This document shows positions 23,049-25,292 of a stretch of 64,000 bases of DNA, one piece after another. Every line of letters begins with the position of its first letter. The first letter of the stretch is position 1. The position numbers and the translations under genes were made by a program. Below the pieces are notes generated by a model. That model saw only the letters and a program-made list of their open reading frames with translations. It was not told the origin of the DNA and made no database searches. Origin of the DNA: Negaprion brevirostris (Eukaryota); the NCBI GenBank assembly GCA_030324005.1, contig JARDVH010000025.1, positions 83,635,521-83,699,520 on the forward strand, read 5' to 3'.

Positions 23049-23102
23049 TAGAAAGTGAGACATTCTTGCTTTCCATAGAAAGTGAGACATTCTTGCTTTC
23101 CA
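23049..23102. repeat. Perfect 27-bp tandem duplication
   Basis: TAGAAAGTGAGACATTCTTGCTTTCCA present twice. Confidence 0.9.
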
Positions 23103-23451: not shown

Positions 23452-23630
23452 GGTTTTTCTGTATTAGACACTTTTAAACTAAATCAAAGGAACTAAGGGA
23501 CAAAGTAAAAGGGCCCCTGCTTTAAACTAGAACAAATCACAAATTAAACATAAAGCATCAAACTAAAATATGATTAAGTGGTTGATAAGGCACTTCAGTC
23601 CCTGCAGTGCCTACCTGGCACAGAAGAGGG
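23452..23630 (-). mobile_element. Putative Tx1-clade LINE 3' end (ORF2 C-terminus plus 3' UTR)
   Basis: Minus strand 23625 to 23563 translates FCAR*ALQGLKCLINHLIIF*, resembling remembered Tx1 ORF2 ends (F..RWAP.G..C). A T-rich UTR follows. Related segment at 24243-24350. Confidence 0.45.
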
Positions 23631-23764: not shown

Positions 23765-23989
23765 ATCACTTCTTGGCCTTTTTTTTGTTTTTATTCCAAT
23801 TCAATCAAATCAAGTCCAATTCAGAGTCTCAACAAGTTGAGACTCATCTTAGCCAAAAGGCCGGGTGCCCCCTTCGGTGCACTTATATTTCTCCAAGTCT
23901 GTACTAGGCCTGTCAATTATGTAGTTGTAGTTGTGAAGAACTTTTAGCCTTTTGGCTAAGATGAAGTGCAGTATCTTCATGCTGTTCTT
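23765..23989 (+). pseudogene. U2 snRNA 5' fragment split by an insertion
   Basis: 23765-23782 matches U2 nt 1-18 at 16/18 (both mismatches are CpG transitions). 23947-23976 matches U2 nt 12-41 at 28/30. Confidence 0.75.
23779..23863 (-). mobile_element. Internally deleted U2-headed SINE-like element
   Basis: Minus strand has CGGCCTTTTGGCTAAGAT (U2 nt 10-27, 18/18), then GA, then a 53-nt tail 52/53 identical to 24183-24235, then an A-rich tail. Confidence 0.7.
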
Positions 23990-24040
23990 GGTTGAAGTCA
24001 TTAGGTTACATTTTGGCTTCATTTGAAGCAATTTTTAGAA

Positions 24041-24242
24041 GTGGCATCTGGGCCTTTTGCTAAGATGCAAATTAGATCAAGCCTTGGGGGAGGAGCCAAG
24101 GCTACTCCAATCAGCTCGGATCACGTAAATCAAACCCAAGAGAGGAGGTGAGAGCCCTGTCTCGTCCGCTTGGATCGGTAATGTCTCAACTTGTTGAGAC
24201 TCTGAATTGGACTTGATTTGATTGAATTGGGATAAAAAAAAA
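24041..24242 (+). mobile_element. U2-headed SINE-like element (~200 nt, A-tailed)
   Basis: Head GTGGCATCTGGGCCTTTTGCTAAGAT...AGATCAAG resembles U2 nt 1-31; structured body; ends GGGATAAAAAAAAA. Confidence 0.7.
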
Positions 24243-25292
24243 CCAAATCAAACCACGTGAGGGACAAAAGAGGCTACCCCTTAAAGGGATAATGCTTTCA
24301 ACAAAACTAAATCATAAATAAAACTTAAAACATCAAACTAAAATTTGGTCAGGCAAGAGGGTCAATTGATATCCTGCTTACCAAAATGAGTGTACTACTT
24401 CATGAGCCTTAACTTTGAATCAACACAGTCCTGTTACTGTTGAAGCATATGTCAGCTAAGGCGAGAATTTGAATTTATACTGTCTGATTAAGAGTCAAAT
24501 GATGAGCTTGTGAAGTAGAGATTGTGTTGAAGTCTTAGTGTGGAATAAGTATGGCATCAAATATGCTATTAGCATGTTACAAGTGATCTCAGCCATTCTG
24601 TAACTTTCTTCCATTATTGACGATTTTGTGTAACTGCTGGGAAGTGGAACCAAACTTCATCCACTTAAAATTTGCATTCATAATGAGAATGTGCTGTCAA
24701 ACTTGGAAATGGAGATCAAAACGGTACCAAAGGAAGAAGATGCTGTCCTTGACCGTTCCCCAGCAACATTTGACAGCTTGGCATTGTCCTGACTGAACAA
24801 GTTATTTTCACAGCATCTTAGCAAGTTAACAACATTCACAAGATACAGAAAGCAAAAGTACTTTACAATGTTGGGATGAGGATCATTGGTTTAAATTTCC
24901 CTGTACAGAAGAACTAGATCCTGAAGAATTTAGACTGTTTCACAGATGTGGATTTGAACCCTAAGGTAAGCAAACTAAACTGTTTCATATGTCTTTTCTT
25001 AAAATTTGATGGAAGTTGAGCTTATGTAATCAGCTAGGAATTCTCTCCTAAGGCAACTTCTTGGGCTATTTTTGTTCACAAACCATTCTATAGTCACAGA
25101 GAACATGTGTTAGTCTATTTTAAAGTGTCACTGTGGTAATTTAAACCGATTCTTTTGCAAATATAATATTGCCGATTGCTTTTGAAGTTCTTTCCTCAGT
25201 TCACTATTATTAAACATAAATCTGGACTGAGTAATGGAGCAACAATGCCATCAGCTGAGTCGAACAAAGCCTCTCAAACATGGGCACAACAA

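Follow-up and report, generated by a model that had tools for sequence, protein, structure and literature searches.

Structure of the element in the window

The window, that is, the whole 64-kb stretch of DNA analysed, contains on its forward strand a full U2-headed element of ~300 bp (~23944-24242) and on the opposite strand a short second copy. According to alignment with family copies, homology of the full element with its family begins at 23944-23953. The features are as follows:

23944..24242, + strand: full element, colinear with family copies to 24242
23947..23976, + strand: outer U2 snRNA head (U2 nt 12-41; relatives reach nt 1), from the match to the U2 gene L031 and the Rfam U2 alignment
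23977..24008, + strand: spacer, predicted to fold back onto the U2 head and to cover the branch-point-pairing region (fold, duplex test)
24016..24042, + strand: short hairpin, then a T5 run (sequence, fold), conserved in the family
24044..24081, + strand: internal, older U2-like segment (U2 nt ~4-30), hairpin (alignment to U2, p=0.001)
24065-24072, + strand: octamer motif inside the internal U2-like segment, intact in 47/57 copies
24082..24156, + strand: middle body, two similar hairpin units (fold)
24157..24229, + strand: 3' part from U2 nt ~40-107 (stem IIa/IIb region), with a hairpin at 24183-24200 (alignments)
24230..24242, + strand: A-rich 3' end (sequence), with the AATAAA-type signal mutated in the window copy
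23779..23868, - strand: short internally deleted second copy, U2-like 23846-23863 joined to tail 23779-23843

The outer head matches nt 12-41 of L031, a U2 gene of the same genome, in 28/30 bases. An Rfam U2 match starts at 23937 (E=7.6e-4, below the gathering score); at the gathering score, neither a ribozyme nor any other Rfam family was found anywhere in the 64-kb window. By sequence, the window element is a diverged member of the younger of two U2-headed subfamilies; it is 90% identical to the column majority of the younger and 82% to that of the older. An AATAAA-type signal near the 3' end is present in most young relatives. At the threshold used, no target site duplication (TSD) was detected flanking the full copy in the window.

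A sequence-only reading of this DNA had placed the 5' boundary at 24041 and taken the U2-like stretch behind it as the head. That stretch does exist, at 24044-24081, as does the A run, which lies at 24234-24242. The boundary had to be moved, as family homology extends ~95 bases further upstream, to 23944-23947, with a better match to U2. What was taken for the head (24044-24068) is an inner, second U2-like hairpin, and the true head lies ~100 bases upstream of it.

The tail of the short opposite-strand copy agrees with that of the full copy in 58/60 bases (23784-23843 vs 24183-24242; first mismatch at tail position 49), and the copy has 18/18 bases of U2 nt 10-27. The common tail and the U2 stretch, on which the sequence-only reading had based a second copy with head and tail travelling together, are thus real, but the second unit is incomplete. 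From its interior ~115 bases are missing, and the resulting junction occurs at only two places in the genome, one of them the window. The short copy is a near one-off deletion derivative; a subfamily was ruled out because the junction is confined to these two places. Its tail agrees 100% over 65 bases with those of two other loci (L016 and L025) and not with that of the neighbouring full copy, and the short copy was inserted independently. A reading of the pair as a MITE or inverted repeat was rejected, since only one other (L021) of the 29 top loci is so arranged.

Both copies are bracketed by an old direct repeat of ~100 bases (78%; 23476-23572 and 24240-24347). It occurs once near L006 (656-830) and is absent beside the other loci examined. 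An exact 27-base tandem duplication lies at 23049-23102 of the window.

A dispersed family of U2-headed copies

A search with the whole element gave 1,768 candidates; among the 40 that were scored, the other full matches are 87-90% identical and lie on many contigs. The sequence-only reading had held that only one or two genomic hits would speak against a family. The genome contains 1,090 exact matches to a 20-mer from within the element, compared with 0 for the reversed-pattern control. Since this 20-mer is intact in just 25/58 top-scoring copies, the counts suggest a family of at least ~2,500 copies.

The first 30 matches of the 20-mer served as a sample picked by the 20-mer alone and unselected for ends. 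The outer head is present in 24/28 readable copies of this sample, four are 5'-truncated, and two more copies have gaps. Only 1/28 begins at the inner hairpin, and position 24041 was rejected as the 5' end of the family. Starts fall at U2 nt 1-8 in 43/54 aligned copies. Identities and head counts from our sets A, B and D are biased upward because these sets are top-score matches; copies are 85-96% identical to their majority overall, and the two subfamilies, 90% alike, have copies 93% (n=30) and 90% (n=27) identical to their own majority. In the older subfamily the head stops at U2 nt 37, in the younger at nt 40.

TSDs were detected in 13/65 usable copies, compared with 1/772 mismatched pairs, and at the threshold used 52/65 copies have none. 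The 3' flanks gave no clear target consensus, and no common flank stood out among the flanks compared. More than 1,000 copies, the outer head in 24/28 and TSDs in 13/65 support the proposal that these are non-autonomous retroposons with a U2 head and an A tail, dispersed as one family, and the family is very probably of the SINEU type. In shark annotations, thousands of such copies will pass as U2 or U1 pseudogenes.

As a lead only, 20/24 sequencing-run rows contain part of a young copy. Half or more of it is contained in eight of the same 24 rows, from three studies, and seven organism labels stand at 0.20 or more; the runs listed with young-copy matches include none of RNA.

A largely U2-derived body and a mostly U1-headed sibling family

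The spacer forms a duplex with U2 1-38 that beats shuffled sequences at p<=0.01 in 49/57 copies (p=0.005 for the window copy). Folding of the window copy, head onto spacer, gave z=-2.82, and folding of the two subfamily majorities gave z=-4.1 and -6.2. The spacer is accordingly modelled as pairing with the head, and this pairing is predicted to mask the branch-point-pairing region. A descent of the spacer from a diverged U1 3' part was also considered and was not significant (p=0.47, 0.49). A compensatory change in the tail hairpin (32 T-A, 2 C-G and 7 mixed or other pairs in 41 copies) was unconvincing, CpG decay being possible.

The body, described as non-U2 in the sequence-only reading, turned out to be largely U2-derived, its last ~70 bases aligning with U2 nt ~40-107. 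Compared directly with U2, the 3' parts of the two majorities gave p=0.003 and 0.001, among 24 tests, and that of the window copy alone p=0.16; a tail profile HMM run against the U2 genes had no match. The middle body is weakly similar to the U2 3' half (p=0.006 for the younger majority, 0.08 for the older). We count the 3' part as U2-derived because of an older sibling family, two bridging copies (L218 and L224) and the alignments of natural copies. The tail of the sibling family matches U2 at p=0.0005 and its core aligns along the window copy, the bridging copies match U2 at p=0.001, and natural copies align with the two halves of U2 at both ends. L218 and L224 are more U2-like, with a 3' part that continues through the Sm-site region, and both are inserted before U2 nt 39-43; they possibly form a further family.

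The sibling family (L232-L261, e.g. L128 1812-2200) has copies 89% identical to their own majority and yielded 2,035 candidates, a number that overlaps with the U2-headed family. In 26 gap-free copies the head is U1 nt 1-95 in 18, U2 in three and absent in five; the U1 head carries an 11-base deletion. Head-spacer pairing is weaker in this family (5/26 at p<=0.01), and the internal U2-like segment is common to it and the U2-headed family. The core is thus an old U2 derivative that was given U1 and U2 heads more than once. From divergence and closeness to U2, we infer that the U1-headed family came first. Repeated head addition is seen in the inner and outer U2 segments, in the U1 or U2 heads on one core and in an add-on in L090.

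A Tx1 LINE as putative partner

A Tx1-type LINE was recovered through a zf-RVT search and an endonuclease search. It has a zinc-knuckle ORF1 and an ORF2 with endonuclease (EN), reverse transcriptase (RT) and zf-RVT (tblastn with P0009 over EN, RT and C-terminus). Pfam assigned RVT_1, zf-RVT, zf-CCHC and RBD_ZCCHC3, and a single EN fragment scanned against Pfam had no match. All three protein matches of ORF1 are from sharks, which indirectly supports a shark host; a CR1-like frame of the window, used for the same purpose, had no match. A segment of the shark protein P0012, annotated as PRDM7-like, is 79% identical to the Tx1 ORF1, as a gene-model artefact or an exonisation.

Full-length 5' ends of this LINE bear U2 nt ~6-34 (L173, L171) or U1 (L178, 49/50 bases). 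The SINE directly follows 3/35 distinct Tx1 3' ends, where chance is ~1e-4 per end or less (estimated at ~2,500 copies); further abutting cases of SINE and Tx1 are L065, L081, L122 and L178. A 10-base motif round AATAAA is common to Tx1 and 9/26 copies of the older family, and the two elements have no alignable 3' tail in common. The body might, as the sequence-only reading had also considered, have been the 3' UTR of a LINE. It has no BLAST match to the 5' and 3' regions of the Tx1 loci examined, and an origin from the Tx1 UTRs was rejected. We think it highly likely that this LINE is the partner supplying the enzymes.

Many Tx1 copies (e.g. L161, L165, L172, L174, L175, L179) are internally deleted and join the start of ORF1 or of the endonuclease to the 3' UTR.

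Insertion at U2 nt 39 and promoter-linked copies

Searching for A runs that precede U2 nt 43-60 yielded 12 matches at seven places, of which two are SINE, two Tx1 and two older relatives, and one lies behind a gap. The SINE junctions are at exactly U2 nt 39 (L220) and at nt 43 (L215). For Tx1, the junction is at exactly nt 39 in L226 and a few bases further in at L225/L081 and L088, with a range of nt 39-46. At L081, SINE and Tx1 together interrupt one U2 unit, and a SINE interrupts the following unit after nt 39. Targeting of U2 is real but weak; we call it weak because U2 39+ follows at 0/88 places with dispersed SINE copies and at 0/35 protein-selected Tx1 3' ends.

Some copies lie behind DNA from upstream of U2 genes. 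L083 and L214 are 80% and 89% identical to the ~90 bases before L031, and L083 is 18 kb from this intact gene. The upstream DNA of L081 is 78% identical to that of the other U2 gene type. No U2-gene upstream DNA was found at any other SINE locus examined. L083 and L214 each have one seamless head. They share ~1 kb of upstream sequence and, ~95 bases ahead of the start, the same inserted repeat; in both, the distal and proximal promoter parts are separated by a repeat. No complete promoter-linked copy was found in the gappy assembly: L083 meets a 4.2-kb gap, L081 ends with its contig, and Tx1 interrupts L214 at nt ~54.

The two U2 gene types, L099 (G000:C157) and L031 (G000:C182), are 84% alike with unrelated upstream DNA, and one of them forms a 492-base tandem array. 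Many dispersed U2 retrocopies (L035, L039-L050) retain ~40 bases of 3' flanking sequence of the gene and are without an A tail, as if made from an unprocessed precursor. Three U2 sequences (L032, L033, L034) contain an additional A in their 5' part and differ strongly in their stems; they possibly come from other organisms in the assembly.

Comparison with known systems

SINEU-1, -2 and -3 are crocodilian elements with repeated addition of U1/U2 heads, and their Tx1-Mar partners bear such heads. The passages on SINEU in PMC4494074 report it from no host outside crocodilians and leave open how it is transcribed without an internal promoter. On the structural features compared, the present family works like SINEU, to which it is likened by described structure and not by sequence. 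As far as those passages describe SINEU, both have U1/U2 heads repeatedly added to a common 3' part, are non-coding, shorter than 500 bp and A-tailed, and show internal T runs, tandem insertions and TSDs in only some copies. Their Tx1 partners themselves carry U1/U2 heads and share the insertion target. The layout of a U1 5' part and a U2 3' part resembles SINEU-2, and the two U2 fragments resemble SINEU-3 (both as described in parts of PMC4494074). In contrast to the SINEU of the same passages, the host here is likely a shark, insertions occur at U2 nt 38/39, some copies are preceded by U2 upstream DNA, U2 is split by added sequence instead of being deleted, the spacer is antisense to the head, and no common flank resembling Mariner was noticed in the shark copies. 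An origin independent of the crocodilian SINEU is likely, because the heads match U1 and U2 of the same genome and the identity of the copies to their majority is 85-96%. The same design and the same kind of LINE partner in a second vertebrate lineage suggest that U2-targeting LINEs can repeatedly give rise to new SINE classes.

After insertion of Keno or Utopia, the U2 sequence continues from nt 39 (passages of PMC4640811). As in Keno, in so far as described there, ORF1 of the partner LINE contains a zinc knuckle, its ORF2 combines endonuclease, RT and zf-RVT, and its 3' junctions fall at U2 nt 39-46. Unlike Keno, its specificity for U2 is not strict, with 0/35 protein-selected 3' ends at U2; the likeness is one of domains and junctions, and the protein matches obtained include no named Keno. 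U2 retropseudogenes and U2/U6-LINE chimeras, in the partial account of PMC4494074, also fuse a 5' snRNA fragment to other sequence and have TSDs. Our family departs from such chimeras in its fixed junctions, its subfamilies and its more than 1,000 copies, which point to source elements and not to independent fusions.

We found no snRNA-headed SINE of sharks in the literature outside subscription journals and Repbase Reports, and an entry for the family in the Repbase or Dfam catalogue is quite possible. HE1 is a known shark SINE with a tRNA head and an L2-type tail. SacSINE1 and the CmiSINEs are likewise short non-autonomous retroposons of shark-type hosts; according to the passages on shark SINEs in PMC5499810 they have tRNA heads and L2-type tails, and the U2-headed family has neither. 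The term 'snRNA' occurs nowhere in those passages, and the relevant passages of PMC8143547 and PMC5381603 mention SINEU only.

Proposed life cycle and alternative explanations

We posit that the family is probably a U2-headed SINEU-type retroposon that is copied by a Keno-like Tx1 and transcribed by Pol II from the upstream promoter of a U2 gene when a copy lies at U2 nt 38/39. A copy inserted at the U2 site would fuse with U2 nt 1-38 and gain the promoter, with transcripts starting at U2 +1. The element transcript would be polyadenylated at the AATAAA near its end, and the Tx1 ORF2 would then prime reverse transcription on the A tail, sending most copies to unrelated sites, where they would be promoterless. 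Rare re-insertion at U2 would renew the source copies, template jumps onto U1 or U2 RNA may add or swap heads, and pairing of the spacer with the head would mask its splicing-active part. With somewhat less assurance, we favour capture of the U2 promoter as the main route of transcription. Copies linked to a U2 promoter, together with head junctions lying at the Keno cut site, make this a specific, testable hypothesis on transcription and, if true, the promoter-capture cycle would answer how promoterless SINEU-type elements get transcribed. Taken to its full extent, the proposal states that sharks evolved a previously undescribed U1/U2-headed system independently of crocodilians, that promoter capture at the U2 site is self-renewing and that the spacer evolved to mask the head; in this complete form we offer it tentatively.

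The same family and the same Tx1 partner might also work as in Kojima's proposal for SINEU, with heads coming mainly from template switching, source copies read from unrelated flanking promoters and the promoter-linked copies as dead-end insertions. Heads were evidently added in ways that suit such a mechanism: add-ons of U2 1-57/58 sit on one Tx1 (L161) and one SINE (L090), U1 and U2 heads stand on one core, and L081 and L242 carry double heads. That every promoter-linked copy is incomplete agrees with it as well. We nevertheless regard it as unlikely, as the head junction is fixed within each subfamily, at nt 34, 37 or 40 and near the Keno cut site, compared with switch extensions that end <=22 bases apart in the cases given in passages of PMC4494074. 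Moreover, the copy alignments show no common 5' extension from a flanking promoter. A different kind of source would be a diverged but functional U2-like snRNA gene, the dispersed copies being its processed pseudogenes. The ~1 kb of common upstream DNA and the shared repeat of L083 and L214 imply descent from one gene-like locus, and the strong folding of the majorities and the U2 origin of both the 5' and 3' parts fit this as well. Head swaps, the succession of subfamilies, A tails and tandem piles with Tx1 are however retroposon traits, true U2 retrocopies in this genome end in the 3' flank of the gene without an A tail, and the branch-point-pairing region is predicted to be masked, which together make an snRNA gene very improbable.

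In addition to the cycle of U2-promoter capture that we prefer, two further explanations were weighed. If the family were an ordinary Pol III SINE, U2-derived words would serve as its A and B boxes; a loose B-box pattern at nt ~140 and ~193 in 51/57 copies speaks for this. T4+ runs in 57/57 copies argue against Pol III; runs of T4-T5 lie upstream of the boxes in 57/57 copies, the boxes do not lie close to the 5' end, and a GTTCGA box is found in none, so that we give this explanation hardly any weight. The other explanation is a Keno/Tx1 LINE with an internal deletion, or a U2-LINE chimera formed only once. Tx1 copies do bear U2 heads and many are internally deleted, but the body is without a BLAST match to the Tx1 5' and 3' regions examined and there are more than 1,000 copies; this reading, to which we assign next to no probability, is largely refuted for the Tx1 family found here.

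A functional role of the octamer in the internal U2-like segment would be speculative. The motif sits within the U2-headed families, and in their promoter-linked copies the distal element is displaced. In the window (24065-24072) it is perfect, with a chance expectation of roughly 1-2%, and it also occurs ~205 bases upstream of the U1 gene L262.
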